From NCBI GenBank assembly GCA_001779055.1, contig MFJA01000011.1:23102-66480 (forward strand): a stretch of 43,379 nt of DNA, in the 5' to 3' direction. Below the pieces are notes generated by a model, which ran no database searches, was not told where the DNA came from, and was given only the letters and a program-made list of their open reading frames with translations. Shown piece by piece: positions 6,453 through 43,379 of the stretch; the first letter of the stretch is position 1, and every line of letters starts with the position of its first letter. The translations under genes were made by a program, and so were the position numbers. This stretch comes from Candidatus Gottesmanbacteria bacterium RBG_16_37_8. GTDB lineage: Bacteria > Patescibacteriota > Microgenomatia > 2-02-FULL-39-11.

Positions 6453-7414
6453 CGGATCAAGCGATTGCATCAGCCCCCGGAAAATTAATGCTTCTTGGCG
6501 AGCATGCCGTTGTTTACGGTTCTCCATGTCTGGTTGCCTCAATTAATAAAAGAATAACTGTTTTTATAAAAAGATTAACAGTCAATAAATTGCATCTTTC
6601 CTTGCCTGATTTAAAATTTGATAAAAAATTTAATCTTCGGGATTTATATATTCATTCTTCCCCGCACCAGGCAGTGTTTGTCATCTCCGCAGTTTCTCAC
6701 TTTTTCCATTATTTTCGTAAACAATCAGGACTGTCAATAAAAACCAAATCAGATTTTTTGCCCCAATTGGGTTTAGGATCATCTTCAGCTGTTACAGTTG
6801 CTACCTTAAAAGCTTTATCCCGAATCTTTGCTAAAACTATCAGCCATGAAAATTTATTTAATTTAGCTTTCCAAAGTGTTAAGGCTGTTCAAAAAAAAAT
6901 TTCCGGTTTTGATCTGGCTGCAGCTGTTTATGGAGGTATAATTTATTATCAATTAAACAAATCTGTTCTTAATTTGCCGAAAAAAAACATACCTCTCTTA
7001 ATAGTTTATTCCGGAATTAAAGCCGATACCGAAAAAATGGTAAATATGGTGTATCAATCGAAAAAAATTAATCCGCTAAAAGTAAACCGTCTTTTTGCTG
7101 CTATATCTCAACTTGTTGACAAGGCCAAAATCGCCTATAAAGAAGACAATTGGCCTCTCTTAGGTGATCTGTTTAATCAAAATCAAAAAATTTTAACTGA
7201 GCTTGGTGTTTCAACTGCTAAATTGAATTTGTTGGCAAAAACTGCCGTCTCAAGCGGTGCCTATGGTGCTAAATTATCTGGCGCAGGAGGAGGGGATTGT
7301 CTTATTGTTTTATATAAGGTAGAACGCAGAGCACAAATTATTGATGCTATTAAAAAAAACGGAGGCAGTCTTTTAGATGTATTTCCGGAGACACAAGGCG
7401 TAAAACTCTTATGA
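6449..7414 (+). CDS. second mevalonate-kinase-like GHMP kinase, probable phosphomevalonate kinase
   Basis: Motifs SAPGKLMLLGEHAVVYGSP, GLGSSSAVTVA, SGFDLAAAVYGG and KLSGAGGGDC. ATGA overlaps occur at both ends. The function is inferred from the pathway position. Confidence 0.55.
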   Translation: MTDQAIASAPGKLMLLGEHAVVYGSPCLVASINKRITVFIKRLTVNKLHLSLPDLKFDKKFNLRDLYIHSSPHQAVFVISAVSHFFHYFRKQSGLSIKTKSDFLPQLGLGSSSAVTVATLKALSRIFAKTISHENLFNLAFQSVKAVQKKISGFDLAAAVYGGIIYYQLNKSVLNLPKKNIPLLIVYSGIKADTEKMVNMVYQSKKINPLKVNRLFAAISQLVDKAKIAYKEDNWPLLGDLFNQNQKILTELGVSTAKLNLLAKTAVSSGAYGAKLSGAGGGDCLIVLYKVERRAQIIDAIKKNGGSLLDVFPETQGVKLL

Positions 7415-17000: not shown

Positions 17001-17867
17001 TTACAGTTCTTCCAGTTTTATGCTGTCGCTTGTTTTCTCTTTTATAAGGTCCAAATATTTTTCTGTTGTTGACAGTCTTTTATGTCCAACCAGTCTGCTT
17101 ATTACAGTCAGAGGGGTTCCCGCTGAAAGATGATGGGCAATAAATGTATGTCTCAAATCGTTAACTTTGGCATTTTCAATTCCGGCGATTCTGAAATAGC
17201 GGTCAATGGTTGTCCTGATATTCCTGACCAGAAGCGGTTTTCCTGTTTTAGTAACAAATAAAGCATTGTTAGTCGATTTTGGTTTTATAGCCAGCCATCT
17301 GTCAAGTGCCTCCCGGGCTGCCTTATTTAAAGGTACGCTTCTTTGAGGATGACTCTCCTGTGCTTCAATTATTAGTTCTTTATCTTTGACATTCTCCACT
17401 TTTATATTGGAAAGTTCACCAATGCGTATTCCTGTTTGAAGAAAAAGTTCCACAATAGAATAGGTTCTTACATCCCCCCGGCAGGCATCTCTTAATGCTC
17501 TGTATTCCATTTTTGACAAAATTCTTGGCGGTTTCACCGTGTATTTGGGATGGGTAATATCAGCTGCCGGATTGCTTGTTACTATATTATTATTCTTTAA
17601 AAAGCGGTAGAAAGTCTTTATTGAGTTGATTTTCCTCGAAAGAGATTTGAGGGTATAGCCGTCAGAAGTAAGTTTCTTTAAGAATGCATCCAGATCGTCT
17701 TTTTCGATGCTGTTTAGGTTTTTTTTACCCATATCGGACAAAAAAGCCATCAATTGCTCAATATCTTTGCTGTAGGCAACTATTGTTGCCGAGGCTCGGT
17801 GTGCCTCTTGCAGGTATGCTATAAACTGTTGCTGGGGACCTTTAAGCTGTTCATTGCCTAAATTCAT
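17001..17867 (-). CDS. tyrosine recombinase, XerC/XerD-like
   Basis: SAM-like N-terminal domain. C-terminal catalytic pattern ...GIRIGEL...LRHTFIAHHLSAGTPLTVISRLVGHKRLSTTEKY. The track start at 17909 is a TTG. The ATG at 17867 sits 7 nt downstream of a consensus promoter and is preferred. Confidence 0.85.
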   Translation of the reverse strand: MNLGNEQLKGPQQQFIAYLQEAHRASATIVAYSKDIEQLMAFLSDMGKKNLNSIEKDDLDAFLKKLTSDGYTLKSLSRKINSIKTFYRFLKNNNIVTSNPAADITHPKYTVKPPRILSKMEYRALRDACRGDVRTYSIVELFLQTGIRIGELSNIKVENVKDKELIIEAQESHPQRSVPLNKAAREALDRWLAIKPKSTNNALFVTKTGKPLLVRNIRTTIDRYFRIAGIENAKVNDLRHTFIAHHLSAGTPLTVISRLVGHKRLSTTEKYLDLIKEKTSDSIKLEEL

Positions 17868-17874
17868 AGGGCCT

Positions 17875-17903
17875 ATAATACAATTAAACAGGTTTCTTGT
17901 CAA
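17875..17903 (-). promoter_or_regulatory. near-consensus promoter of the recombinase gene (leaderless)
   Basis: The minus strand reads TTGACA(17903..17898)-17 nt-TATTAT(17880..17875)-7 nt-ATG(17867). Confidence 0.45.
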
Positions 17904-18003
17904 ATTCAATCACTTTGTTGTAGAATAAATAACCTCATCATGTTCGGCCTATATGTAAAGCGTCAAAATATCAATGTAGATTTATATATTCTCTCGGCCT
18001 AAC

Positions 18004-19231: not shown

Positions 19232-21571
19232 ATGAAATTAACAGGTATCAGACAGCAGGTTTTTTTGGATCGCTATTCATTGAAAAACGATAAAGGTCAG
19301 CCTGTTGAGAGTACTCCTGACAAGATGTGGGTAAGAGTAGCTAAAGGAATTGCTTCTGTTGAAAAAAAGGAAAGTAAAAACTTCTGGGAGAAAAAGTTTT
19401 ATCAGGTGATGGAAGATTTTAAGTTTGTCCCCGGAGGAAGAATACTATCCGGCGCAGGTTCCGGCTACAAAGTCACTTTCTATAATTGCTTTGTCATTCC
19501 CTCCCCCAAAGATTCCCGCGACGGCATTCTGGAAACATTAAAACAGATGGTGGAAATAATGGCCAGAGGCGGAGGAGTCGGTATTAATCTGTCATCATTA
19601 AGGCCCCGAGGGGCTAGGGTTAAAAAAGTTAACGGTTTTTCATCAGGGCCCTGCAACTGGGCGGAACTTTTTTCAGTTGCCACCAAAGATATTATCCAGC
19701 AGGGCGGTACAAGAAGGGGAGCTTTAATGCTCATGCTTTGGGATTGGCATCCTGATATTGAAGAATTTATTACCGTCAAAAGGGATTTAACGAGAATTAA
19801 TGGCGCTAATTTATCAGTCTGTGTTTCTGATAAATTTATGGAAGCAGTCAAAAAAGATGATGATTGGCAGCTTGTTTTCCCCGATATCTCCGACCGGGAG
19901 TATGACGGCAAATGGGATGGCTACTTGGATGATTGGGTTAAGTCAGGTAAAAAAGTTAAGGTCTATAAAACAGTTAAAGCCAGAAAGATCTGGGATTTGA
20001 TCAGTCAAGCTGCCTGGGCGTCAGCTGAACCGGGTGTTGTCTTCATGGAGAGATACAATAAATGGAATAATAATTGGTACTTCAATAAAATCAACTGCGT
20101 CAATCCGTGCGGAGAGGAAGGGCTGCCTGCTTATGGTGTATGTAATCTTTGTTCCATTAATTTGGCAGCTTTGGTTAAAAACGGTCATATAGATCTTAAA
20201 GAGCTGTCCCGTATTGCTAAAATCGGCGTCCGTTTTCAGGACAATGTCATAGATGCCGATTCTTATGTTTTTCCTCAAATAGAGAAAGTTCAAAAGCATG
20301 GTGAGCGCCGTATTGGTCTTGGCACCATGGGTCTGGGGGATGCTTTTATCAAAATGAAAATCCGCTATGGTTCAGATCAATCTTTAAAAGTTATCGATAA
20401 AATTTACCAAACAATAAGAGACGCAGCTTATGAGACTTCAGCTGAAATTGCCAAAGAAAAGGGAGCTTTTCCCAAATTTGATGCTGATAAATATCTCAAG
20501 GGTTACTTTGTCAGTCAGCTCCCGAAATCCGTTAAAGATAAAATCCGCAAATGGGGAATCAGAAACTCTGTTCTTCTTCAGCAGGCTCCCACAGGCTCCA
20601 CCTCGCTTTTATCCGGTGTTACCTCAGGTATTGAACCTGTTTATGAATTTTCCTTTATAAGACGCGACCGTTTAGGTGAACACCGTCTTTATCATCCTCT
20701 TTATGATGAATGGAAAAAGAAAAATCCAGATAAACCGGTGCCTGATTACTTTGTTTCCGCCAATGATTTGAATCCTGAAGATCATGTTCGGGTTCAGGCA
20801 GCTATTCAAAAATATGTTGATGCCTCAATATCCAAAACAGTCAATGCACCTAATACTCATACAGTTGCTGATGTTCAAAAGCTGTACCGTTTGGCTTACG
20901 AACTTGGTTGTAAAGGTATAACTTACATGCGCGACGGAAGCCGTCCCGGAGTTCTGGAAAGAATTGATCAGAAGAAGGAAGAAGCCAAAGCTGCCGTAGA
21001 TGAACTGACTAATGGTAACGGTAAAAAAACTCCTGAAATCACCCCCCGGCCTATGGTGGTTAAAGGTGCAACTTACCAGATTGATACTCCCGTTGGTGCA
21101 GCTTTTATCACCATTAATACGGATATTGCCAATGAACCGCTTGAATTATTTATTAATGTCGGTAAAGCCGGATCAGACGTTACCGCTATGGCTGAGGCAG
21201 TCGGCCGTTTAGCTTCACTTGTTTTGAGAATGCAATCGAGCGTCCCGGCTTCTGAAAGATCAAAACAGATCTTTAATCAACTTATTGGTATCGGCGGCAG
21301 TAAATCGCTCGGATTTGGAGAGAAAAAAGTCCGTTCATTGCCTGATGCCGTTGCTAAAATATTAGCCATGCATTTCGGCTATAAAGTTAAAAACGGCAAT
21401 GGTATTACCAAAGATGAAAAACTGCTTGATAAACCGGTTGCTGTTCTCACCCAAGAAGTTCTGCCGGTTGAAAAATCGGAATATGATTTATGTCCTTCTT
21501 GCGGAGAAGCAGCTCTGGCTTACGAGGAAGGCTGCAAGAAATGTTACAGCTGCGGCTACTCAGAATGCTGA
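19232..21571 (+). CDS. nrdJ: adenosylcobalamin-dependent ribonucleotide reductase (class II)
   Basis: 779 aa. Motifs NCFV, GGGVGINLSSLRPRG, NPCGEE and QQAPTGSTS. C-terminal CPSCG...CKKCYSCGYSEC zinc finger. GAAGGGTGA RBS upstream. Confidence 0.9.
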   Translation: MKLTGIRQQVFLDRYSLKNDKGQPVESTPDKMWVRVAKGIASVEKKESKNFWEKKFYQVMEDFKFVPGGRILSGAGSGYKVTFYNCFVIPSPKDSRDGILETLKQMVEIMARGGGVGINLSSLRPRGARVKKVNGFSSGPCNWAELFSVATKDIIQQGGTRRGALMLMLWDWHPDIEEFITVKRDLTRINGANLSVCVSDKFMEAVKKDDDWQLVFPDISDREYDGKWDGYLDDWVKSGKKVKVYKTVKARKIWDLISQAAWASAEPGVVFMERYNKWNNNWYFNKINCVNPCGEEGLPAYGVCNLCSINLAALVKNGHIDLKELSRIAKIGVRFQDNVIDADSYVFPQIEKVQKHGERRIGLGTMGLGDAFIKMKIRYGSDQSLKVIDKIYQTIRDAAYETSAEIAKEKGAFPKFDADKYLKGYFVSQLPKSVKDKIRKWGIRNSVLLQQAPTGSTSLLSGVTSGIEPVYEFSFIRRDRLGEHRLYHPLYDEWKKKNPDKPVPDYFVSANDLNPEDHVRVQAAIQKYVDASISKTVNAPNTHTVADVQKLYRLAYELGCKGITYMRDGSRPGVLERIDQKKEEAKAAVDELTNGNGKKTPEITPRPMVVKGATYQIDTPVGAAFITINTDIANEPLELFINVGKAGSDVTAMAEAVGRLASLVLRMQSSVPASERSKQIFNQLIGIGGSKSLGFGEKKVRSLPDAVAKILAMHFGYKVKNGNGITKDEKLLDKPVAVLTQEVLPVEKSEYDLCPSCGEAALAYEEGCKKCYSCGYSEC

Positions 21572-21621
21572 GCGTCAGCGAAGTCCCGATGAATATCGGG
21601 ATTGAACGGGTACAATGAACG

Positions 21622-22164
21622 ATGGTCAAAATCTACACCAGAACCGGTGATCAGGGAAAAACTTCCCTTTATGGAGGCAAGAGGGTCCTCAAATCACATC
21701 CGCGCGTCAATGCCTATGGTACGGTTGATGAATTAAATTCGCATTTGGGTTTGTTATTAGCCGCGCTTTCTAAAGAAAAAGAAATTATAAATTTCTTAAC
21801 TTCAATTCAATCCGATCTTTTCGTCATTGGCAGCCATTTATCAGGCGATAAAATACCTCTCCATTTATTAAGTAAAAGGATCAGACAAATGGAAAATTTG
21901 ATTGACCGTCTGGATAAAAACCTGCCGCCTTTAAAAAATTTTATCCTCCCTCTCGGATCTCCGGAGGCATCCTTAGCTCATATTGTCAGAACTGTCTGCC
22001 GAAGGAGTGAAAGACAAGTTATAGCTTTAATATCCGATGAAAAAAGTATCGACTTAGAGATTGTTGCCTATCTAAACCGTCTTTCTGATTTAATGTTTAT
22101 TATTGCCCGTTACCTCAATTCCCGTCGCGGGATAAAAGACGTTATTTGGAAAAAATTACTCTGA
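21622..22164 (+). CDS. PduO-type ATP:cob(I)alamin adenosyltransferase
   Basis: Begins MVKIYTRTGDQGKTSLYGG and carries ...RTVCRRSER... 180 aa. Confidence 0.88.
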   Translation: MVKIYTRTGDQGKTSLYGGKRVLKSHPRVNAYGTVDELNSHLGLLLAALSKEKEIINFLTSIQSDLFVIGSHLSGDKIPLHLLSKRIRQMENLIDRLDKNLPPLKNFILPLGSPEASLAHIVRTVCRRSERQVIALISDEKSIDLEIVAYLNRLSDLMFIIARYLNSRRGIKDVIWKKLL

Positions 22165-22233
22165 CATTCCCCTTGTCATTAAAGCCCAATATATGACAAA
22201 ATAGATGTGTTATAAAAATTCATTTGAATTTCT

Positions 22234-22701
22234 ATGAAAAGATTAAATTATAAGAGAAAAAGTAATCCGGTTTTAATCATCCTCTTTATTTTATTAGCTG
22301 TTATTTTGGTCATGCAGTTTACTGTCTTTAAGGGCAATAAATTTAATCTTGCCCCTGATAAAACTGATCAACGCCAGAGCCAAAATAACCAAAATCAGGC
22401 TATTCAGATGGAGGAAAATACTGTTACTGTCGATTTTGGTGATGGAAGGAAAATTGAAAAAAATGTTAAAGCAGAAACACCATTCCGGGCTTTGCAAATG
22501 GTTTCCGACAGCGAAGGTTTTGCAGTTTTAACAAAAGAGTATAAATACGGTTTGATTGTTGAAGAAATTAACAATGTTAAAAATAATTCGGGAAAATATT
22601 GGCTTTATTCAGTCAATAATCAGCCGGGTAAAATTGCCGCTGATCGTTATCAGTTAAATGCAGGTGATGTCGTTAAATGGGAATATACTAGTGCCAAATA
22701 A
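22234..22701 (+). CDS. membrane-anchored DUF4430-like protein (transcobalamin beta-domain-like fold), putative corrinoid binder
   Basis: N-terminal TM segment. C-terminal pattern VTVDFGDG...ETPFRALQMV...YGLIVEEINNVKNNSGKYWLYSVNNQPGKIAADRYQLNAGDVVKWEY is typical of DUF4430. Confidence 0.6.
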   Translation: MKRLNYKRKSNPVLIILFILLAVILVMQFTVFKGNKFNLAPDKTDQRQSQNNQNQAIQMEENTVTVDFGDGRKIEKNVKAETPFRALQMVSDSEGFAVLTKEYKYGLIVEEINNVKNNSGKYWLYSVNNQPGKIAADRYQLNAGDVVKWEYTSAK

Positions 22702-23314
22702 AATTGATAAAAAAAATCATCTGCCCATTTTTAATAATACCCCTTCTTTCAGGGTTTTTTTTGCCGTACTTTTGATTATTCTGGCAGTTTTAGGAAGAAC
22801 AATTTTTCATTTGGGTGAAAATATCGAGTTTGTAACTGCTGCCTCGCTTTTAGCAGGCAGTTTCCTTGGTTTATTTTGGTCAATAACAGTTCCGCTGGTT
22901 TCTATGGCCATTAGCGATCTGATAATCGGCAATACCCTGATTTTCCTTTTCACCTGGAGTGCTTATTTAATAATAGGTATTCTTGGTTTTATATTTTTAC
23001 GCTCCTCGAAAGGAATTGTTTCACAGACTATTAAAGCAACCTTTACCGGAGTTCTTGCCTCTTTTGTCTTTTTTCTTTGGACTAATTTTGGCGTCTGGTT
23101 GCTTGACAGTTTCGGTATGTATTCTGATGGTTTGTCCGGACTCATAGAGTCTTATATTTTCGGCCTGCCTTTTTTAAAGATGAATCTGTTGGGAAATTTA
23201 TTTTTAGTACCCCTCTCCTTTATTCTTTTTCACCTGTTTCTCATTTTTTATCCGTCAATCTTTAAGTCTGCATCAAAGACTGAAAGAAGTTATATTAAAA
23301 AAGGAAGTTATTAA
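22658..23314 (+). CDS. DUF6580-like polytopic membrane protein, putative vitamin (B12) uptake component
   Basis: Motifs ...NIEFVTAASLLAGSFLG... and ...FFLWTNFGVWLLD...GLSGLIESYIFGLPFLKMNLLGNLFLVP. An in-frame GTG at 22691 is an alternative start and would cut the overlap with the upstream gene to 11 nt. Confidence 0.5.
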   Translation: MQVMSLNGNILVPNKIDKKNHLPIFNNTPSFRVFFAVLLIILAVLGRTIFHLGENIEFVTAASLLAGSFLGLFWSITVPLVSMAISDLIIGNTLIFLFTWSAYLIIGILGFIFLRSSKGIVSQTIKATFTGVLASFVFFLWTNFGVWLLDSFGMYSDGLSGLIESYIFGLPFLKMNLLGNLFLVPLSFILFHLFLIFYPSIFKSASKTERSYIKKGSY

Positions 23315-23319
23315 TAATC

Positions 23320-23784
23320 ATGCCTGCCCAATCAGCAAATACCACATCTTCTGCCGATCCCAAGTTTCCAACATCGACTCCTTCCTCCCAACCCGCCAAT
23401 GCTCCTGCTCAGGCTTCTGTTTCAATCCATGGCAAGGAAGCAGAAAGCACCCCTGTTATTAAAGGAGAAATTTCAGCATCAGAATCCCAGGAATTTGAAA
23501 TTCCCAAAGAAGTGGCCAGTGTTGGTGTCCGGGAAATTAAAGGAACAATAGAACTCCCCCCGGATGTAAAAAGGTTGGGTGTTGCGCCGTCAGGCTCTCA
23601 GACACCGGTAGTTTCTCTCCCCACAGTCTCTCTGCCGTTAACTGATGATAAAATTCTTCAGGGGGTCAATGCTCCGCTTACTTCCGCTTTTAAATGGCTG
23701 GCAGTTTGGTGCATTAAAAAACTTCAAAAAGCTCATCTTGTCCTGAAAAACATACATGGTAAAATCATTCGGGTTAAAAATTAA
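23320..23784 (+). CDS. hypothetical protein with a P/S/A-rich N-terminus and a basic amphipathic C-terminus
   Basis: 154 aa. Low-complexity N-terminal third and C-terminal ...SAFKWLAVWCIKKLQKAHLVLKNIHGKIIRVKN. It ends 15 nt upstream of the ATPase gene. Confidence 0.5.
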   Translation: MPAQSANTTSSADPKFPTSTPSSQPANAPAQASVSIHGKEAESTPVIKGEISASESQEFEIPKEVASVGVREIKGTIELPPDVKRLGVAPSGSQTPVVSLPTVSLPLTDDKILQGVNAPLTSAFKWLAVWCIKKLQKAHLVLKNIHGKIIRVKN

Positions 23785-23799
23785 ATCATAATTCTAATT

Positions 23800-26145
23800 A
23801 TGGATGAAGGAACTTTCGAAATAGTCAATCTGTTGATTGATTTTGGAATAACTTTATTTATCCTGGTTCTATTCCTGGCCGGAATTGCCCTCTTTCTTTA
23901 TTTCTTCTTTTTATGGTGGAAATATAGAAATCGCGAAAAGCAAAGTTTGGAATTTGTTCTTCTGCAGGTTTCCGTTTCTAAAGATAATGAAGTCAAAATT
24001 GATGCTGCCGAGCAGTTTTTTACTGCTCTTTCTTCTCTTTCTCACGGAGGTTTTTTATCATTTTTAAAGCCTCAGGACTATATTGCTTTTGAGATTGTCG
24101 GTCGTCCAGGCGATATCCGCTTCTATGTTTCCGTTCATCATCACCTAAGGGATCTTATTGAAAAACAGATCTATGGAATGTATCCTGCCGCTGAAATCAG
24201 GGAAATTGATGAATATAATATTTTTAATGCTGTTGGTAAAGTTGCTTTTACTTCTTTTATTCTTAAAGATGCTGATTATCTGCCCATAAAAACCTACCGC
24301 GATCTGCCTATCGATTCTTTATCGGCCATTACCTCAACATTGGCTAAAATGCAGGATGGTGAAGGTGCCGTTATCCAAGTTCTGGTTACCCCCTCAGACG
24401 GCAAATGGAAAACAGCCGGTAAATCCCACATCTCCAATATAAAGAAAAATGAAGCTAATCCCGAAAAAGCGAAGTATAATGTTGATGCTAAATCTCTGGA
24501 AACAATTGAAAATAAGCTGACTAAACCTGGTTTTTTTACCACCATCCGTGTAGTTGTTACTTCATCAACAACAGAGTCGGCTAAAATGCATCTTCATAAT
24601 ATTGAATCAGTTTTTTCCCAATTTTCCTCGGACAAAAATCATTTTGGTTCAACAAAACAGCTGATAAAAAGTTCCTTTATGTTTGATTTTATCTACCGTT
24701 ATTTCCCTGTTAGTAATTGGCCGTATAAACAATATAGTGTTTTAACCAGTGAGGAGTTGGCAACAGTCTTTCACTTTCCCAATAAAAGTGTGGAAACACC
24801 CCATATTGACTGGGTGACTTCCAAAAAAGCTCCTGCTCCGGCGGATATTCCTACCACCGGTCTATATCTTGGTAAAAGTGCCTACCGGGGCATCTCCCGT
24901 CCGATACATATGCAGTTGGATGACAGAAGGCGTCATATCTATATTGTCGGCAAAACTGGTGTCGGCAAATCGGTACTTTTAAAAGATATGATTCTTCAGG
25001 ATATTAAATCCGGCCAAGGTGTTGCTGCTATCGATCCCCATGGAGATCTAATTGAAGGAATTTTACCCCTCATTCCTCCCGAAAGAGCCGAAGACGTTAT
25101 CTATTTTGATCCCTCTGATATAGAGCGTCCCATGGGATTAAATATGCTGGAAGCCTATACAGAAGAACAGAAACATTTCATTTGTACCTCAATTATCGGA
25201 CTGATGTATAAACTTTATGATCCGCAAAAAACAGGTATCATCGGCCCGAGGTTTGAGCATGCCATCAGAAATGCCATGTTAACCGTCATGGTCGAGCCAG
25301 GTGCATCTTTTGTCGAGGTGGTCAGAGTTTTGACCGATTCAGCCTTTGTCCAGGAGCTTCTTCCCAAGGTTACTGACCCGATCATCAGGCGTTATTGGAC
25401 CGACCAGATTGCTCAAACTTCCGATTTTCATAAATCCGAAGTTCTGGATTATATAGTTTCCAAATTCGGCCGTTTCGTCACCAACAAATTAATGCGTAAT
25501 ATTATCGGCCAATCCAAAAGCGCTTTTGACTTCAGAAAAATCATGGATGAAGGTAAAATACTTCTGGTAAATCTGGCCAAAGGCAAACTCGGTGAAGAAA
25601 ATTCATCATTTTTAGGCTTAATTCTTGTTCCCAAAATTCTGATTGCCGCCATGAGCCGTGTGGATACTCCCGAAGATGCCCGTCGTGACTTCTTTCTCTA
25701 TGTTGACGAGTTTCAGAATTTCGCTACTCCCGATTTTGCCCAGATATTATCAGAAGCAAGAAAATTCCGTCTCAACTTATGTGTTGCCAACCAGTTTATC
25801 GGCCAGATGGAAGAGGAAGTCAAAAATGCCGTGTTCGGCAATGTCGGTACCATCATTTCCTTCAGGATTGGCGTCACTGATGCTAATTATCTTCAGCACT
25901 GGTATACTTCGGTTTTTAACGAAAGCGATCTTATTAATGTCGATGTCTATAATGCCTATGTCACAACTATAATCGGCAATAAACCGGCTACTCCTTTTTC
26001 TGTTGACATGAGAAAAGACATAAGCGAGTTGAAAAAAATGGAGAATAAAGAAGTTGCCAAGGCAATTGTCCAATTATCCCGCCTCAAATACGGCCGTCCC
26101 CGCGAACTGGTCGAAGCCGAGATCTCCCGGCGTGCCAAGTTATAA
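23800..26145 (+). CDS. membrane-anchored VirD4/TraG/TraD-like (T4SS coupling-protein-like) P-loop ATPase
   Basis: N-terminal TM segment (ITLFILVLFLAGIALFLYFFFLWW), then about 300 aa of unknown domain. Walker A is YIVGKTGVGKS and the Walker B-like motif is FFLYVDEFQNF. SEARKFRLNLCVANQ resembles the TraG/TraD C-terminal module. Confidence 0.7.
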   Translation: MDEGTFEIVNLLIDFGITLFILVLFLAGIALFLYFFFLWWKYRNREKQSLEFVLLQVSVSKDNEVKIDAAEQFFTALSSLSHGGFLSFLKPQDYIAFEIVGRPGDIRFYVSVHHHLRDLIEKQIYGMYPAAEIREIDEYNIFNAVGKVAFTSFILKDADYLPIKTYRDLPIDSLSAITSTLAKMQDGEGAVIQVLVTPSDGKWKTAGKSHISNIKKNEANPEKAKYNVDAKSLETIENKLTKPGFFTTIRVVVTSSTTESAKMHLHNIESVFSQFSSDKNHFGSTKQLIKSSFMFDFIYRYFPVSNWPYKQYSVLTSEELATVFHFPNKSVETPHIDWVTSKKAPAPADIPTTGLYLGKSAYRGISRPIHMQLDDRRRHIYIVGKTGVGKSVLLKDMILQDIKSGQGVAAIDPHGDLIEGILPLIPPERAEDVIYFDPSDIERPMGLNMLEAYTEEQKHFICTSIIGLMYKLYDPQKTGIIGPRFEHAIRNAMLTVMVEPGASFVEVVRVLTDSAFVQELLPKVTDPIIRRYWTDQIAQTSDFHKSEVLDYIVSKFGRFVTNKLMRNIIGQSKSAFDFRKIMDEGKILLVNLAKGKLGEENSSFLGLILVPKILIAAMSRVDTPEDARRDFFLYVDEFQNFATPDFAQILSEARKFRLNLCVANQFIGQMEEEVKNAVFGNVGTIISFRIGVTDANYLQHWYTSVFNESDLINVDVYNAYVTTIIGNKPATPFSVDMRKDISELKKMENKEVAKAIVQLSRLKYGRPRELVEAEISRRAKL

Positions 26146-26171: not shown

Positions 26172-26243
26172 GGACGCGTAGCTCAGTGGTAGAGCGCCAA
26201 CCTTATAAGTTGGAAGTCCTTGGTCCGATCCCAAGCGCGTCCA
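26172..26243 (+). tRNA. tRNA-Ile, anticodon UAU (reads AUA)
   Basis: Hand-folded cloverleaf. Acceptor stem GGACGCG/CGCGTCC; D stem GCTC/GAGC; anticodon stem CCAAC/GTTGG with loop CTTATAA (U33, anticodon TAT, A37); T stem CTTGG/CCAAG with loop TCCGATC; discriminator A. No CCA is encoded. Confidence 0.85.
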
Positions 26244-26250
26244 CAAATTT

Positions 26251-26511
26251 TTAATAAACATCTCCTCTATCTTCAATAATCCAAATTTTAATTTCTTTTT
26301 TCAGTTCATCAACCGTAAATAGAATTCTTCTTGATCCAACGCGTAATCTCACCATATTTTCAAATTTTCCTTTGAGCGCTTTTATGTCTAAATTTTTAAG
26401 TGTCTGAAGATAAGCAAGTTTGTTAATAGCGTCTGAAACTATGCGGTAGCTTTTTGGGTCAAGTTTGGAAAGAAATTTCACTGCTTTCTTACCAATGAGG
26501 ATTTTGTGCAT
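26251..26511 (-). CDS. relE: RelE/ParE-family toxin
   Basis: 86 aa. ...LKGKFENMVRLRVGSRRILFTVDELKKEIKIWIIEDRGDVY is a typical RelE/StbE C-terminus. It abuts the antitoxin gene with no gap. Confidence 0.75.
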   Translation of the reverse strand: MHKILIGKKAVKFLSKLDPKSYRIVSDAINKLAYLQTLKNLDIKALKGKFENMVRLRVGSRRILFTVDELKKEIKIWIIEDRGDVY

Positions 26512-26802
26512 TTAGGAATTTTTCAGCTTTTTCCGCTGTTTTTTGTCAAATGAAGCGAAATCTATAAATTTATCTCCTTTTTCAATTGATTTCTCCAGTT
26601 TTTTTGTTTCTTTTTCTTCCTCAAACTCTTCAAAAAGATTAATAATTTGTTGGTATTGAGTAGGGGATAGCATGACAGCTACAGTGTCGTTATCTCTTGT
26701 AACCACTACCGGCTGGTTTTGCTCTAAATGCTTAATGATATCTGCACTTTTGTACCGAAGATCGGTTATTGATTTGATAGTCGGAATTATTGGCAGTCTC
26801 AT
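26512..26802 (-). CDS. Phd/YefM-family antitoxin
   Basis: SITDLRYKSADIIKHLEQNQPVVVTRDNDTVAVMLSPTQYQQI is a Phd/YefM fold signature. The C-terminal tail is acidic and basic. Confidence 0.75.
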   Translation of the reverse strand: MRLPIIPTIKSITDLRYKSADIIKHLEQNQPVVVTRDNDTVAVMLSPTQYQQIINLFEEFEEEKETKKLEKSIEKGDKFIDFASFDKKQRKKLKNS

Positions 26803-26810
26803 ATATCATA

Positions 26811-26839
26811 ATTATGACTTATTTATAAGACATTGTCAA
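26811..26839 (-). promoter_or_regulatory. promoter of phd-relE (leaderless), overlapping a 12-bp palindrome
   Basis: The minus strand reads TTGACA(26839..26834)-17 nt-CATAAT(26816..26811)-8 nt-ATG(26802). The perfect palindrome TCATAATTATGA at 26806..26817 covers the -10 and is an operator candidate. Confidence 0.4.
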
Positions 26840-26904
26840 GATGGCCTACTATTTCTGCCCACGTGATTTTCACAATATGGTACACTTTTACTTAGAATTA
26901 AAAA

Positions 26905-27705
26905 ATGGAAAATCAAATAAATATGGGTGATCAAAATACCCAGCAAATAGGACAAAACCCTATTGGTAAACCTGCACCGGTTCCAGAAAAACCAAAAGTA
27001 AACTATTGGATGGTCACAACCATAATATTTGGTTTTCTATTTTTCGTAATATCAGCAATGTTTTTATTTAGGGCGAGATTTAATGAAAAATCTACACCTA
27101 TTATTCCTGCGCCAAGCCCATCATTAATACCAGTTGAGACAGACGACATTCAGATAGGAGACGATGAAAGTTATGTCGACTTTTCGACATGTGATCAATG
27201 GGCACAAAATGTGATAAATAAAAAGAGTCTTCCTCAACAGTTAATTCACTCATGTAAGTCGAGCCAGAAAATTCTTGATTCAGAAATAGTTAACCTAGTT
27301 GATATTTTTTTTGGACCACCAGATGACTGTCCCTCTGGATGCATTTATAAACGCTTTATAGGAGTTGTGAAGTTAGATAAATCTATTATTGAACAACTTC
27401 CATCCGGTCCAGAAGGAATTCTGAACTCGGTTTGGGCGCAGCCTCCTTTGGATACTGCCAGAAATTATTCTGGCTTTGAATGTCCATCTCAACTTGAGGA
27501 TTATATTGATGTTACGCTCGGAAAACTAGAAACTAAATATGGCTGGAATCTGAACTTTCAAAATCCTCTTACTTGTAGTTGGGAAGAATTTGATAATGTG
27601 AAGCAGACTGTTAATAAAAGATCTTTTACTCTGAATGGAAGTATGTTTGTATATTTAGATAATGGTGAGGAACGTTGGAATCGTGATAGGTTAATTGTAA
27701 AGTAG
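26905..27705 (+). CDS. membrane-anchored extracytoplasmic protein of unknown function
   Basis: 266 aa. One TM segment (WMVTTIIFGFLFFVISAMFLF), then a Cys-containing ectodomain. I recognised no motif. Confidence 0.5.
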   Translation: MENQINMGDQNTQQIGQNPIGKPAPVPEKPKVNYWMVTTIIFGFLFFVISAMFLFRARFNEKSTPIIPAPSPSLIPVETDDIQIGDDESYVDFSTCDQWAQNVINKKSLPQQLIHSCKSSQKILDSEIVNLVDIFFGPPDDCPSGCIYKRFIGVVKLDKSIIEQLPSGPEGILNSVWAQPPLDTARNYSGFECPSQLEDYIDVTLGKLETKYGWNLNFQNPLTCSWEEFDNVKQTVNKRSFTLNGSMFVYLDNGEERWNRDRLIVK

Positions 27706-27757
27706 ATTAACGAATTTATACTTCAATCCGATCATAGAAATCGCGCGCGCGAAATAA

Positions 27758-27785
27758 AGTCCGAATTTTTTCGTAAAGAGTCCAC
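27758..27785 (+). repeat. left copy of a perfect 28-bp direct repeat
   Basis: AGTCCGAATTTTTTCGTAAAGAGTCCAC, identical to 28549..28576. Confidence 0.95.
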
Positions 27786-27888
27786 AGCGTAAGAAATTTT
27801 TTCTTGAAAATTTCAACGCTGTTGGAACGTTTAAATCGAGGATTTATTACGTTCCACAGTTTTGAAGAAAAAGAATCATCTGGAAGAG

Positions 27889-28287
27889 TTATTCCAGTTT
27901 TAATAATTTTTTCTTTTCCTCAAATATTATTCTGAATCTTTTAAAGAATTCTTGTCTCCCCAGAAGATTAAAAGAAACTAAATATTCATGAGAAAAGACT
28001 ACCGGGCATAAAAATTCTTTTCCAGCGATTTGAATTTTTAATCTATGAATATATCCTTTAATATGTCCGCCAACTCCGCCCAAATAAATCTCTATACCTT
28101 TTTCAATCTCAATTCCCAACTGTTTTGCGACCTCTTTTTTAAAAACAGAGACAGTTGCTCCAGAATCAATTAAAGCCGCTGAATCAATAGTCGTGTTATT
28201 ATGATAAAAACGTAAAGGAATAATTGGGAAAGATTGGTTTTTAGCGTCTTGGCGATAGGGAAATACTTTTAAAGCGATTTTATCCAT
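27889..28287 (-). CDS. retropepsin-like (clan AA) aspartic protease
   Basis: 132 aa. The active-site motif ALIDSGATVSVF (D-S-G-A) and the single-lobe size are typical of homodimeric retropepsin-like proteins. Confidence 0.7.
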   Translation of the reverse strand: MDKIALKVFPYRQDAKNQSFPIIPLRFYHNNTTIDSAALIDSGATVSVFKKEVAKQLGIEIEKGIEIYLGGVGGHIKGYIHRLKIQIAGKEFLCPVVFSHEYLVSFNLLGRQEFFKRFRIIFEEKKKLLKLE

Positions 28288-28502
28288 AAAACATAAGGAC
28301 CTTCATCTTTTCTGGGCACTAAAAAAGAAAAGGGGGCTTCGCCTACTGGGGGTACTTTCTGATTTGTTGTGTGTGTTACCAGAGAAGCAATATCTTCTAA
28401 GGTTTCACCCACAGCTATTATTTTATCTTTTACAGGATCGATAACAATCCATTTACCTGCAAATTGCTCGATATCTTTGGTAGAAATATCTACTTTCTTC
28501 AT
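28269..28502 (-). CDS. small DUF5678-like protein, upstream partner of the protease
   Basis: 77 aa. FAGKWIVIDPVKDKIIAVGETLEDI resembles the GKWVA(I/V)...(I/V)(I/V)A.G pattern of DUF5678. It overlaps the protease gene by 19 nt. Confidence 0.55.
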   Translation of the reverse strand: MKKVDISTKDIEQFAGKWIVIDPVKDKIIAVGETLEDIASLVTHTTNQKVPPVGEAPFSFLVPRKDEGPYVLWIKSL

Positions 28503-28508
28503 AGGTTT

Positions 28509-28517
28509 ATTATAGCA
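28509..28517 (-). promoter_or_regulatory. extended -10 of the DUF5678/protease cassette (leaderless)
   Basis: The minus strand reads TGCTATAAT(28517..28509)-6 nt-ATG(28502). It lies inside the repeat-bounded segment. Confidence 0.4.
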
Positions 28518-28548
28518 TCTTCAGAAAGATAGCTTATCTTTGAAAATT

Positions 28549-28576
28549 AGTCCGAATTTTTTCGTAAAGAGTCCAC
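28549..28576 (+). repeat. right copy of the perfect 28-bp direct repeat
   Basis: AGTCCGAATTTTTTCGTAAAGAGTCCAC. Its last base is the first base of the stop-codon complement of gene 28576..29394. Confidence 0.95.
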
Positions 28577-29394
28577 TATTTTTCCCATCTCACACAGATT
28601 AGACTCCCGATCGGTGCCCAGGAAGATAATGTCAGATTTCCTTCCTCATCCCGGCTGTAGAAAAATGAGGCGCTTCCGCCGTCAAGATTGACCAACTCTT
28701 CCAAAGGAAAGATATTACCCTCTTTAAGTTGCCAGAAGATAACCGGAAGATCGGCTAAATGGGGACCGGCATCCAGATTATCCTTTTTGGTAATACTGAT
28801 AAAATACAAATTTCCCTGGAAGTCCTTTCCCAGTAATGATCTTCGTGCTCTTTCGTCTCTTATCAATCTAAGCTGGTTTTTATTGGGAAAAATATATGGG
28901 CCGGTCTGAAAAATAAAATCGGTAAACTGAAAATTTACAGGTGGTGTCCTGATAAATCTTAAATCACCTGCTTTATCCTGCCAGACAAAAGAATTTGCAA
29001 TACTGCTTTTAACGATTTTTCCGTATTGCTTCTCCCCGCTAAAAAAAAGTCCTAATGGTTGTTCATTGCCTTGGTAAAATCCTCCGTTTATCCCTAAATC
29101 GCAGTTATTCTCCTTAACCAGTTTTTCACCGGTAAATTTTTCCGAAAAATTGGCAATCAGAGATATTTTTGATAGATTTGGAATTTTTACCCCGAAGACT
29201 AAATATTTCACCCGCCCGTATTCTGTTTCCGTTATCGTTCCGTTAGGAAGTCTTAAAGGAGTCGGAGTTGCTTCAACTTTAATTCCCGTCGACAGGATAT
29301 TGCTTTCCTTAAATTGCCTGATTGTTTTAACGGCAACCGACCCGATAAGAAGCAGAATAATTATCAAAATTATAGGAACAGTATATTTTTGCAC
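28576..29394 (-). CDS. phosphodiester glycosidase family protein (DUF2233/NAGPA-like), membrane anchored
   Basis: N-terminal TM segment. Motifs CDLGINGGFY and VNLDGGSASFF are typical of this family. Confidence 0.65.
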   Translation of the reverse strand: MQKYTVPIILIIILLLIGSVAVKTIRQFKESNILSTGIKVEATPTPLRLPNGTITETEYGRVKYLVFGVKIPNLSKISLIANFSEKFTGEKLVKENNCDLGINGGFYQGNEQPLGLFFSGEKQYGKIVKSSIANSFVWQDKAGDLRFIRTPPVNFQFTDFIFQTGPYIFPNKNQLRLIRDERARRSLLGKDFQGNLYFISITKKDNLDAGPHLADLPVIFWQLKEGNIFPLEELVNLDGGSASFFYSRDEEGNLTLSSWAPIGSLICVRWEK

Positions 29395-30171: not shown

Positions 30172-30438
30172 ATGAAACGAGTAATAACTACTAATTTACG
30201 AATGCCGGAAAATATGTGGTTACAGGTAAAATCCGCTGCTGGTGAATTAGGAATCAGTCTAAATGAATATTTAAATACAATTATCTGGGAAGTTTCCGGA
30301 AAAAAACAGTTAGGAATTAAACCGGAGAAAAAAAGAACGAGTGAAAAGAAATTTTGGGAATTATATAAATTAATGGACGATATCGAGTATAAACCAATGG
30401 GACTTTCTAAAGAGGATGAAATTATTTATGGAATTTAA
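30172..30438 (+). CDS. ribbon-helix-helix-type antitoxin (VapB-like)
   Basis: 88 aa. VITTNLRMPENMWLQVKSAAGELGISLNEYLNTII has an RHH-like beta-alpha-alpha pattern. It overlaps the downstream PIN gene. Confidence 0.6.
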   Translation: MKRVITTNLRMPENMWLQVKSAAGELGISLNEYLNTIIWEVSGKKQLGIKPEKKRTSEKKFWELYKLMDDIEYKPMGLSKEDEIIYGI

Positions 30439-30847
30439 TATTAATGAAGCTATTTTTTTAGACACAGCTTATTTTAAAGCCCTTATTGATAAAAAAGATG
30501 AATTTCATAAACAGGCTGTCAAGAAATGGAAAAGCATTGCTCAAAAAGATGTAAAGTTAATTACTACAAATTTTGTTTTAGATGAAACCTTTACACTAGT
30601 AAAAGTTAAATGCGGACTTAATGCCGTAATTGAGTTCAGAAACAGACTGGCAGCCGGATTAAAAAGAATGAAAATAATCAGAACGCTTCTGATTGATGAA
30701 GAGAAAGCCTGGGATTGGTTTCTAAAAGACTGGAGCAACCTTTCTTTTACTGATTGTGTTTCTTTTGCCGTAATGGAAAGACTAGAATTAAAACGTGTCG
30801 CCACTTTTGACCGTCATTTTTCCAAAGCAGGATTTACTATTGTCTAA
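30416..30847 (+). CDS. vapC: PIN-domain toxin (VapC-like)
   Basis: Motifs IFLDTAYFKALID (PIN Asp), TNFVLDETFTL and SFTDCVSFAVMERL..VATFDRHF. The ATG at 30428, 11 nt after AGAGGA, is an equally good start. Confidence 0.8.
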   Translation: MKLFMEFNINEAIFLDTAYFKALIDKKDEFHKQAVKKWKSIAQKDVKLITTNFVLDETFTLVKVKCGLNAVIEFRNRLAAGLKRMKIIRTLLIDEEKAWDWFLKDWSNLSFTDCVSFAVMERLELKRVATFDRHFSKAGFTIV

Positions 30848-42872: not shown

Positions 42873-43290
42873 GGGGATGAGACGATCGACGGGATAGTAC
42901 TTTAAAAACTGCAAGCCGAGGTGATTGTACTCGCAAAATCAATCAAAACAAAACTGTCAGTAATGATGGTGAAAAAGAAGATATTTTAGCTTTAGCTGAC
43001 CGAGTCCTCGGAAAGCTTGAAGCACGAAATGCTTCTTTAGCTTACGCTGCAAATTATTTGCAGGTCTAAGCTCATCTGTATTTGTCTTTTTCTGATGGGA
43101 TGATGCAGGTGTAAACACAGTCAGAATGCACCCCGGTAATTGACAGACATCGGGGTAAAGACTTTGTCTTACTTTTTTTATTGATTGTCCGTTGGGACAA
43201 TAAGAAAAGGACATTATAACAACGGACTACGCTTGTAGAAGTTTTTATAGTGCGTCTTCGGACTCCGGATCACCTCCGGACATCTCCACC
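42873..43290 (+). ncRNA. ssrA: tmRNA (SsrA)
   Basis: The 5' end GGGGATGAGACGATCGACGGGAT pairs with the 3' end CATCTCC-A-CC, including the G3:U wobble. T-arm TCCGG-ATCACCT-CCGGA. PK1 was hand-folded: CGAG/CTCG plus TGATTG/CAATCA at 42917..42945. It lies 5 nt after smpB. The tag ORF is not resolved. Confidence 0.85.
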
Positions 43291-43379
43291 CAGCAAAATC
43301 ACTCAAAACCCGCTTTATGGCGGGTTTTTCGTGATCGCTGGGCAAGCCCTGAATAACATGAAATAGATTTTGCTGGGTG
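43287..43379. repeat. 14-bp perfect inverted repeat bracketing the ssrA terminator
   Basis: CACCCAGCAAAATC (43287..43300, overlapping the tmRNA 3' end) and GATTTTGCTGGGTG (43366..43379, at the window edge). Confidence 0.8.
43306..43329 (+). terminator. rho-independent terminator after ssrA
   Basis: AAACCCGC-TTTATG-GCGGGTTT followed by a T-run. Confidence 0.7.

Follow-up and report, generated by a model that had tools for sequence, protein, structure and literature searches.

A two-unit insert behind a tRNA-Ile gene of a Gottesmanbacteria genome and its 28-bp boundary repeats: a probable case of tandem cassette accretion at a tRNA-end-like site

The window analysed here is a stretch of 43,379 nucleotides (43 kb) from the genome of Candidatus Gottesmanbacteria bacterium RBG_16_37_8, in which a perfect 28-bp direct repeat brackets a cassette of two small overlapping genes. 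Two exact copies of the 28-mer (AGTCCGAATTTTTTCGTAAAGAGTCCAC) are present, at 27758-27785 and 28549-28576, on the plus strand in each case and 791 bp apart from start to start. No third copy was found in the window with up to three mismatches tolerated, and 100 shuffles gave 0 matches. The last C of the right copy is also the first base of the stop codon (CTA, 28576-28578) of a neighbouring NAGPA-family gene. An earlier note on this DNA had read the two repeats as the integration footprint of a miniature cassette that encodes no recombinase, either as attL/attR sites or as a long target duplication. Its description of the locus is accurate: the repeats are exact, the right one touches the stop codon of the glycosidase gene, and two genes only lie between the copies, neither of them a recombinase. 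The interpretation has to be changed in part, as set out below.

The first gene of the cassette is a DUF5678 protein (28269..28502, minus strand, 77 aa, Pfam DUF5678 at E=6.8e-6), and its 3' end overlaps by 19 nt the gene of a retropepsin-like aspartic protease (27889..28287, minus strand, 132 aa). The protease carries a DSGA active-site motif and matches Pfam PF13975/PF13650 (gag-asp_proteas/Asp_protease_2), so that both assignments made in the earlier note have Pfam support. Further matches of the protease are weak ones to NCBIfam clan AA profiles and those to two PADLOC candidate profiles, PDC-M52B (E=4.9e-8) and PDC-M08B. DUF5678 has 126 close homologues, in whose alignment the C-terminal tail VPRKDEGPYxL is invariant. 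Its AlphaFold2 model, although confident (pLDDT 88), found no fold match in the PDB (best E about 1), searches of PHROGs and NCBIfam returned nothing for it, and no PADLOC or antitoxin partner profile matched. The proposed extended -10 box (TGCTATAAT, 28517-28509, minus strand) can be read directly in the sequence, 6 nt before the DUF5678 ATG, a spacing that implies a predicted transcript with no leader or almost none. A simple consensus promoter scan, which performed at background level, missed this box because a -35 hexamer is absent.

On the protease side the cassette ends in a structured tail, again as described before. The tail module (27786..27857, plus strand) consists of two hairpins, the second of which (GGAACGT...ACGTTCC+AC) resembles the 7-bp acceptor stem of a tRNA followed by AC. 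It is succeeded by the remnant of a sequence that we call module E (27858..27888, plus strand, AGTTTTGAAGAAAAAG...), which elsewhere follows ...CCAC at tRNA ends and at 28-mers. Taken together, these two parts (27786-27888) have a strong predicted structure (RNA fold z = -3.8), and a bidirectional terminator-like hairpin (27880-27897) overlaps both the protease stop codon and the module E remnant. The tail has been kept in three of the comparison loci, which come from other genomes and metagenomes and are numbered L001-L130: L024, L122 and L025 (95.5% over window positions 27758-27869, with a compensatory change).

The layout of the cassette, with the small gene first, a 19-nt overlap and its own predicted promoter, resembles a type II toxin-antitoxin (TA) pair, as well as the PDC-M52 and PDC-M08 candidates of PADLOC. 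With these systems it also shares a mobile context among other TA pairs, next to the match of the protease to the PDC-M52B and PDC-M08B profiles. The difference lies in DUF5678, which matches neither a solved fold nor the profile of an antitoxin or of a PADLOC partner. The protease is not of a classical toxin family and has PADLOC candidate matches only, and DUF5678 comes without a known fold or family function. Judged by its sequence and surroundings, the pair is one of several small, apparently self-promoted, TA-like cargo modules found in these slots. It may have an addiction or defence role, which would explain its persistence in islands, and one might guess that the DUF5678 tail acts as inhibitor or substrate of the protease.

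The inserted DNA is larger than the 0.8-kb cassette to which the earlier note had confined it. About 1.5 kb to the left of the left 28-mer, and not mentioned in that note, a tRNA-Ile(UAU) gene (26172..26244, plus strand, ARAGORN and Rfam) ends in ...GCGCGTCCAC, that is, in GTCCAC (...GCGTCCAC at 26244). On the other side lies the NAGPA-family gene (28576..29394, minus strand), which belongs to the core genome and whose stop overlaps the right 28-mer by 1 nt. The loci L114-L118 contain no EL, the element described below that carries the 28-mer, and four of them (L114-L117), relatives reached through the NAGPA protein, show the empty site: only 4 nt separate the end of tRNA-Ile (...CCCAC) from the NAGPA stop. 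The NAGPA protein is 65% identical to that of the window in L114 and 55% in L115, L116 and L117, and these relatives share with the window the order of a VirD4-like gene, tRNA-Ile(UAU) and a convergent NAGPA gene. Given that the tRNA end and the NAGPA stop are 4 nt apart in these relatives, the 2.33 kb that separate them in the window (tRNA end at 26244, stop from 28576; insert 26245..28576) are an insertion. The three relatives closest in NAGPA (L119-L121, 60-79% identity) were uninformative due to a different downstream neighbour.

This insert is a mosaic of two units, each of which ends in a 28-mer, and contains no recombinase gene. Unit A (26245-27785) carries a RelE-like/Phd pair, a membrane-anchored protein of what we call the NQ family and a minimal EL. 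Unit B (27786-28576) consists of the tail, the module E remnant, the protease/DUF5678 pair and a partial EL. The two units stand in tandem, and the left 28-mer is part of the one that precedes the cassette. The pair in unit A has its own promoter and comprises the RelE-like gene (26251-26511, minus strand, 86 aa) and a Phd/YefM antitoxin gene (26512-26802, minus strand, Pfam Phd). The 86-aa product has no Pfam match; position and size suggest a RelE/ParE-like toxin. The NQ-family gene (26905..27705, plus strand) has no Pfam match either, and its promoter and N-terminus are conserved next to a variable C-terminus. Homologues of the N-terminus were found in 18 loci, typically followed by an EL in the same orientation, and the gene of the window is 75% identical at the nucleotide level to those of L045 and L055.

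The NQ family deserves a description of its own. Its members begin with MENQINMGDQNTQQIGQNP...PEKPKVNYW and a transmembrane helix, and the promoter and the first ~50 codons are common to the 18 loci at the DNA level. The extracellular C-terminal parts are unrelated, and the gene is usually flanked by ELs in inverted orientation. Examples lie at 26866-27705 in the window, at 420-1259 in L045, at 2480-3319 in L055 and at 3019-4197 in L012, and further ones in L074, L100, L077 and others. In L058 (947-2350) and L087 (2805-4208) the slot that elsewhere holds an NQ-family gene is occupied by an IS630-like DDE_3 transposase and a 126-aa open reading frame. These lie between inverted ELs, but the EL is not the terminal repeat of this transposase, as the flanks are not TA duplications.

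Alignment of the surroundings of the 28-mer shows that it is the invariant 3' core of a longer modular intergenic element of 46-265 nt, the EL. The element begins with a 5' box (either AAATCGCGCGCGCGAAACATAAG or GTCCGAGCCGACTTTTT), continues with covarying GC-rich hairpins, which are optional (GGCGCTGCGAGTG/CACTCGCAGCGCT against GGGGCGGCGGCTG/CAGCCGCCGCCCT is an example), and ends in CCTTTGAAAnnC followed by the 28-mer. One of the hairpins, hairpin C, covaries in 44 unique copies. Junction statistics were taken over 139 copies of the 28-mer; in about two thirds of them conservation stops right after ...GTCCAC, and in 40 module E follows. Module E also stands behind at least 23 tRNA genes that end in CCAC (mostly Ile, but also Val, Leu, Ala and Lys). 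The core itself resembles the end of a tRNA gene: its first bases (GTCCGAAT) are as in the T-loop and its last bases (GAGTCCAC) as in the acceptor end, best matched by tRNA-Ala, -Ile and -Val. GTCCAC is found in exact form at 26239-26244 (the end of tRNA-Ile), 27780-27785 and 28571-28576.

The two copies in the window represent different states of this element, both recognised with an nhmmer profile. Their likeness reaches only 7 nt beyond the 28-mer on the left (35 nt at 91%), and the sequences upstream of the left copy (ATCGCGCGCGCGAAA) and of the right copy (CTTTGAAAATT) are different parts of the longer element. The left copy (27758-27785) closes a minimal EL (27738..27785, plus strand) that consists of the 5' box AAATCGCGCGCGCGAAA, TAA and the 28-mer and lacks the GC-rich hairpin modules; other minimal forms are found in L015, L003, L001 and L111. 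The right copy closes a partial EL (28535..28576, plus strand), which forms the terminal boundary of the insert and retains the 3' 42 nt only (ATCTTTGAAAATT plus the 28-mer, model positions 83-124) at 90-97% identity to about 140 copies. The latter is a truncated EL. In relatives more genes separate the cassette from the next EL: in L122 the cassette is set off from the boundary by the M1 promoter module, then by an NQ-like gene and by an EL.

ELs are intergenic, lie about 30 nt after the 3' ends of genes on either side and show no orientation bias to the neighbouring genes. This lack of bias, together with a promoter scan at background level, led us to reject a 5'-UTR, riboswitch, promoter or simple terminator. 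No Rfam family was found for the EL, either at gathering thresholds (the window and 8 loci) or at permissive thresholds (L012). A strand test based on G:U against A:C mismatches in hairpin C was uninformative, since it contains one fixed G:T pair only. GC-rich hairpins are also seen inserted at many positions of the AT-rich modules, even within the 28-mer (after AGTCCG) and in the M1 promoter module (L070 6192-6254 and 8674-8764; L003 ~1985-2040; L010 ~7160-7230).

Outside the window the 28-mer was found in 113 loci, of which 19 are in species-level GTDB genomes (exact search) and 94 in metagenomes, mostly from groundwater (slightly degenerate pattern). Most of the 19 genomes are labelled as Patescibacteria and come from several classes (Woese-, Gottesman-, Collier-, Jorgensen- and Saccharibacteria), and a few contigs from metagenome-assembled genomes are labelled Gammaproteobacteria. 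Each of the 19 genomes holds the 28-mer in one stretch, and contigs of 841 kb and 858 kb contain one match each. The repeat is therefore not scattered through genomes in the way of repetitive extragenic palindromic (REP) sequences, which the earlier note had named as the finding that would speak against its interpretation. A dispersed repeat of the REP type, a bacterial interspersed mosaic element (BIME) or a miniature inverted-repeat transposable element (MITE) was rejected on the same ground, with two copies in 43 kb and no target-site duplication at inverted pairs. Viral contigs gave 0 matches. The 28-mer is exactly conserved across classes while the neighbouring proteins are only 37-75% identical. 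Being carried by an element and identical across bacterial classes, it is not the long target duplication suggested before.

The boundaries of the units are fixed, whereas the cargo behind them is exchanged. The protease/DUF5678 pair recurs in many other genomes, always with the protease stop nearest the junction. It follows the 28-mer of an EL in the window, L003/L090, L015, L021, L027/L028/L047 and L111, and it follows a true tRNA end in L122-L124 (Ile UAU), in L075 and L109 (Ile GAU) and in L078 and L125-L130 (Val CAC). The closest relative of the window cassette is found in L122, where the tail and the two genes are 81% identical at the nucleotide level. In the window the junction after the 28-mer reads ...GAGTCCAC|AGCGTAAG, and in L122 the junction after a tRNA-Ile(UAU) gene ending in GGTCCAC reads ...AGGTCCAC|AGCGTAAG; the first nucleotide of the cassette is the same. 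For L078 and L125-L130 the tRNA-Val(CAC) end is followed by the cassette as ...GAGTCCAC|AG(G/T)TTTGGAG, and in L078 the far side of the cassette is formed by TTGAAACTC and a 28-mer.

A similar exchange is seen for the RelE/Phd unit. It stands behind the tRNA-Ile end in the window and behind a tail hairpin (...ACGTTCCAC|, ending in GTTCCAC) in L024, with 82% nucleotide identity over 610 nt. Other cargo is found between full and partial ELs in direct orientation: a ribbon-helix-helix/PIN pair in L055, RelE/Phd with a 474-aa gene in L070, the protease/DUF5678 cassette with an MFS transporter in L015, and further examples in L047, L021 and L067/L103. The RelE/Phd unit of L070 has a partial EL on each side. 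Because the same cassettes occur behind the 28-mer, the tail hairpin and true tRNA ends, these three are interchangeable left partners, each a hairpin ending in YCCAC. Two of the checks that the earlier note had proposed, for empty sites and for other cassettes with the same boundary (L024, L055, L070, L015 and L047), have thus turned out positive. Its att-type footprint is retained as far as the boundaries are concerned, as they behave like att sites: the relatives have empty sites, and the same junction recurs with the same cassette and the same polarity. That the junctions were made by site-specific recombination is something we infer from their comparison.

A candidate enzyme was found next to the ELs of other genomes. 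In 24 of 114 loci (21%) a large serine recombinase (LSR) with 80-95% amino-acid identity between copies is encoded 150-270 bp beyond the 28-mer, always in the same orientation. Its domains (Resolvase PF00239, Recombinase PF07508 and Zn_ribbon PF13408 in L017 and L046) are those of the large serine recombinase architecture, and it matches the PHROG integrase phrog_95 at E=8.7e-75. The LSR unit is flanked by inverted repeats of 106-109 bp that are 97-99% complementary and are made up of module E, a hairpin and GCAAAGCCCTGTTTATA. At one outer end the unit touches a tRNA gene, mostly tRNA-Ile, whose last bases are ...CCAC (in 12 of the 13 loci examined), and at the other end an inverted 28-mer; in the exceptional locus, L046, the LSR flank is not a tRNA. 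In all 24 loci the inverted repeats of the LSR unit adjoin the 28-mer core. Moreover, the 5' box of the EL is identical to the last codons and the stop of the LSR gene, which links the ELs to the LSR element.

Several details of this unit are worth recording. The LSR is the only gene between the inverted repeats (2453-2561 and 4013-4121 in L046; 11093-11198 and 12648-12753 in L027), and inverted ends of this length are uncommon among serine-integrase elements. The LSR stop falls within a 28-nt sequence (~3933-3960 in L046) that is a perfect palindrome when assembled from copies in different loci (CTTATGTTTCGCGCGCGCGAAACATAAG); one half of it is the 5' box of the EL, which the window has at 27738-27757. 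In L045 (2580-3130) and L055 (630-1073) the LSR gene is interrupted by an IS200-type insertion sequence with a Y1 transposase and flanking hairpins. As this is an independent insertion sequence inside the LSR gene, its TnpA was rejected as the mover of the ELs.

Homologues of the LSR with at least 80% identity are present in Collier-, Woese- and Yonathbacteria and in Microgenomates, within a wider family of more than 7,900 members. Identity of this degree across classes indicates that the LSR has been transferred between them recently. With the tRNA on the plus strand, the typical layout is tRNA-Ile, the LSR on the opposite strand, a minus EL, cargo, a plus EL, the gene pair for protease and DUF5678 (again on the opposite strand), a plus EL and core genes. 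The window is arranged likewise, with RelE/Phd in the place of the LSR and the minus EL.

On balance, we think these data are probably best accounted for by tandem, site-specific accretion of cassettes without a recombinase of their own at a tRNA-end-like site. A unit would integrate precisely at the 3' end of tRNA-Ile(UAU). The 28-bp core would be the outer end of an EL that travels with the inserted DNA, with GTCCAC copying the end of the tRNA gene and GTCCGAAT copying its T-loop. Once integrated, the unit would thereby re-create a site equivalent to the tRNA end at its far side, and the next unit could integrate behind this regenerated docking site. The two 28-mers of the window would then be the distal ends of units A and B, and serve as attL-like and attR-like boundaries for the protease/DUF5678 cassette. 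The enzyme was most likely supplied in trans, and the LSR is the best candidate because it is physically linked to such sites in other genomes. A dyad was sought around ...CCAC|AG for placing the crossover of a serine recombinase; it yielded a weak TCCA-N6-TGGA only, with no consistent central dinucleotide.

A number of observations weigh against this interpretation. There is no LSR in the 43-kb window and no recombinase gene in or next to the insert. The likeness of the 28-mer to tRNA ends amounts to only about 8 + 8 nt and does not make it a true copy of the tRNA-Ile of the window, and a score for this likeness was only a little higher with tRNAs trailed by module E (mean 4.3) than with others (mean 3.0). 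No circular or excised form was seen, and the junctions were read from a comparison of assembled sequences. The geometry is mixed, as the LSR unit lies between inverted tRNA-like sites and the units without recombinase lie between direct ones, and ELs occur in both orientations relative to genes. Finally, unit A of the window lacks module E at its left boundary, and the far side of the cassette in L003 has no 28-mer.

Homologous recombination among shared short modules could also give such a mosaic. The EL and the modules E, M1 and tail would then be relics of old mobile DNA that now serve as patches of homology, the cassettes would be acquired, lost and reshuffled after DNA uptake, and the 28-mers would be neighbouring copies of a locus-restricted repeat instead of active att sites. 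Much in the region fits such a history: modules are mosaic throughout at 70-95% identity, ELs are found in either orientation and may be truncated, minimal or hairpin-expanded, deletions apparently took place between short repeats (GAAA...GAAA at the left copy), and the absence of a recombinase from the insert and of an LSR from the window is readily understood. Nonetheless, we consider it unlikely, as the nucleotide after ...CCAC is identical in left contexts that are unrelated (tRNA-Ile, tRNA-Val, 28-mer and tail hairpin) and thus offer no homology there. Relics would neither be expected to keep the 28-mer exact across classes while neighbouring proteins have drifted to 37-75%, nor to be accompanied by a highly conserved LSR in 21% of the loci.

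Alternatively, the EL might act as a functional RNA or transcription signal, either a tRNA-like minihelix cut by RNase P/Z or a bidirectional terminator or insulator between convergent genes, with the copies ending or processing the flanking transcripts. Its structure and its position would suit such a role: covariation is seen in hairpin C (44 unique copies) and in the tail hairpin of L025, stable folds are predicted (z = -2.9 and -3.8), the hairpins close with a 7-bp stem like that of a tRNA acceptor and then AC, and the element lies some 30 nt after gene ends on either side. The GC-rich hairpins are dispensable, however, as the minimal forms in the window, L015 and L111 show, the outer stem ACTC/GAGT is not kept (ATAA and AATT in the window), and neither an Rfam family nor an orientation bias to genes was found. 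A signal of this kind also leaves unexplained why the element is absent from close relatives, is confined to one locus per genome and takes part in cassette swaps that are exact to a single nucleotide. We therefore regard it as improbable.

The remaining two alternatives concern other enzymes. The only recombinase gene found in the window encodes a Xer-like tyrosine recombinase (17001..17909, minus strand) with NCBIfam scores of the XerC/XerD/XerA type, and the 28-mer could be its dif-like site, with the cassette moved by the host in the manner of mobile elements that use Xer for their integration (IMEXs) or of pdif modules. Shifted by 4 nt, the core can indeed be read as ACTCAGTCCGA-ATTTTT-TCGTAAAGAGT, which gives a spacing of 11-6-11 with symmetry at 8 of 11 positions; in 10 other loci an EL has a Xer-like gene within a few kb (about 10 kb off in the window); and pdif modules and IMEXs likewise lack a recombinase and often carry TA genes. 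To our knowledge the 28-mer has no similarity to canonical dif consensus sequences. There is no switch in GC skew at 27.7-28.6 kb, and up to 5 copies occur within 14 kb in both orientations. Hairpins sit inside the putative left arm and centre in L070 (after AGTCCG), the outer left arm is variable, and true tRNA ends, which have no 11-6-11 structure, replace the 28-mer. The proximity of Xer genes probably reflects the conserved synteny of xer-divIC ... tRNA-Ile. We give a dif-like site very little credence, and the Xer-like protein is a weaker candidate for the trans-acting factor than the LSR. That the units move in single-stranded form, by a HUH mechanism like that of IS200/IS605 or REP/RAYT, is just as hard to believe: insertion always immediately 3' of YCCAC beside a hairpin, subterminal hairpins at the ends, a fixed orientation relative to the target and the lack of a target-site duplication would agree with it, but no HUH gene recurs near ELs, the sole Y1 transposase found (L045/L055) belongs to the independent insertion sequence in the LSR gene, and units and target have the CCAC at their end in common, as is typical for a shared recombination core and not for the ends of IS200/IS605.

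Returning to tandem accretion, the systems closest in working principle would be SCCmec-type composite islands, tRNA-targeting islands with their cis-mobilizable elements (CIMEs), and the cassette arrays of integrons and pdif modules. SCCmec-type islands (with Ccr recombinases, pseudo-SCC elements without ccr and integration at the 3' end of rlmH/orfX) share insertion behind a conserved gene (at its 3' end), segments that have a short integration-site sequence as direct repeats at their boundaries, tandem stacking, some segments without a recombinase, and association with a large serine recombinase. The LSR described here gives weak matches to CcrB/CcrA/CcrC and XisF, far below cut-offs, which does not establish orthology to Ccr. 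Differences are the target, which is a tRNA end (Ile, Val and others) instead of rlmH, the tiny size of the units (0.8-2.7 kb), the repeat, which is a 28-bp mimic of a tRNA end inside a modular hairpin-rich element, and the LSR unit, which has near-perfect inverted repeats of 106-109 bp and holds the recombinase gene only.

One defining feature of a tRNA island is present in the window, as the insert begins exactly at the 3' end of the tRNA and relatives have the uninterrupted site. Islander-type tRNA/tmRNA islands and CIMEs likewise abut an intact tRNA 3' end, have a tRNA-end-like distal repeat, include att-flanked derivatives without a recombinase in tandem, and leave empty sites in relatives. 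In classical tRNA islands, however, the gene of a tyrosine integrase lies beside the tRNA and 15-60 nt of genuine tRNA sequence are duplicated, whereas the insert of the window has no integrase of its own and an exact identity to the tRNA of only about 6-9 nt. The distal repeat is here a pseudo-tRNA end that is conserved across classes, and the linked enzyme is a serine recombinase. As to a possible CIME or pseudo-SCC nature of unit B, it has direct 28-mers on both sides, and in the LSR loci this core lies against the inverted repeats around the LSR, which may use it.

With integron cassettes (attC) and with the pdif modules of Acinetobacter or Xer-dependent IMEXs the units have in common that they are small, mostly of one or two genes, free of a recombinase and often of TA type, and that structured recombination sites are repeated as boundaries within arrays. 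An integron cassette array was nevertheless rejected: there is no IntI gene and no attI, R''/R' (GTTRRRY) cores are lacking, and the EL is neither palindromic from end to end nor an attC-type bottom-strand hairpin. The tyrosine recombinase is of the Xer type, with integron-integrase scores far below cut-off. In comparison to pdif modules and IMEXs, the dif-like architecture is not preserved in the EL and a terminus signal is missing. It might be argued that the Candidate Phyla Radiation (CPR) possesses an integron-like platform for cassette exchange with a serine instead of a tyrosine recombinase, in which a compact LSR element with inverted ends of about 100 bp would be parked at tRNA-Ile/Val, the 28-bp mimic would regenerate the dock, and small self-promoted TA/defence and surface-protein cassettes would be captured one by one behind it, shuffled and exchanged between classes. 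We put this forward as a doubtful extension.

Some further features of the window were noted. Directly upstream of tRNA-Ile, 19232-26145 contains a ribonucleotide-reductase-like 779-aa gene, DUF4430, DUF6580 and a VirD4/TraD-like coupling-protein homologue of 781 aa, a block that is conserved in L115 and L117. A second TA hotspot lies between the OMP-decarboxylase and Band_7 genes, where the window has a CopG/HicB-like gene with PIN (30172-30847) and relatives have Phd with PIN (L114 3552-4185, L116 4591-5239 and L118 3384-4032). At 42873-43291 Rfam identifies a full-length transfer-messenger RNA (110 bits), while ARAGORN reports none in the window.

Searches of the literature (on DUF5678, on islands and integrases of Patescibacteria, and on serine recombinases in CPR) yielded no account of the EL system, nor a description of the 28-bp core or of a compact LSR unit with ~100-bp inverted ends; a description of dif in CPR was not found in the literature searched either. 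An exact look-up of three proteins of the window returned no entry.

CPR genomes are tiny, and their ways of acquiring genes are poorly known. The locus described here provides a concrete and recurrent route by which very small cassettes may come to lie behind tRNA genes, and cassettes with TA-like pairs or a variable membrane protein can be swapped in this way between distant lineages. In practice the 28-mer would give a marker for variable regions in CPR metagenome bins. If the LSR is indeed the enzyme, it would come with natural and unusually well-defined sites (a tRNA end or the 28-mer on one side, module E on the other) and add a new family to the serine integrases that are used as tools for genome engineering.

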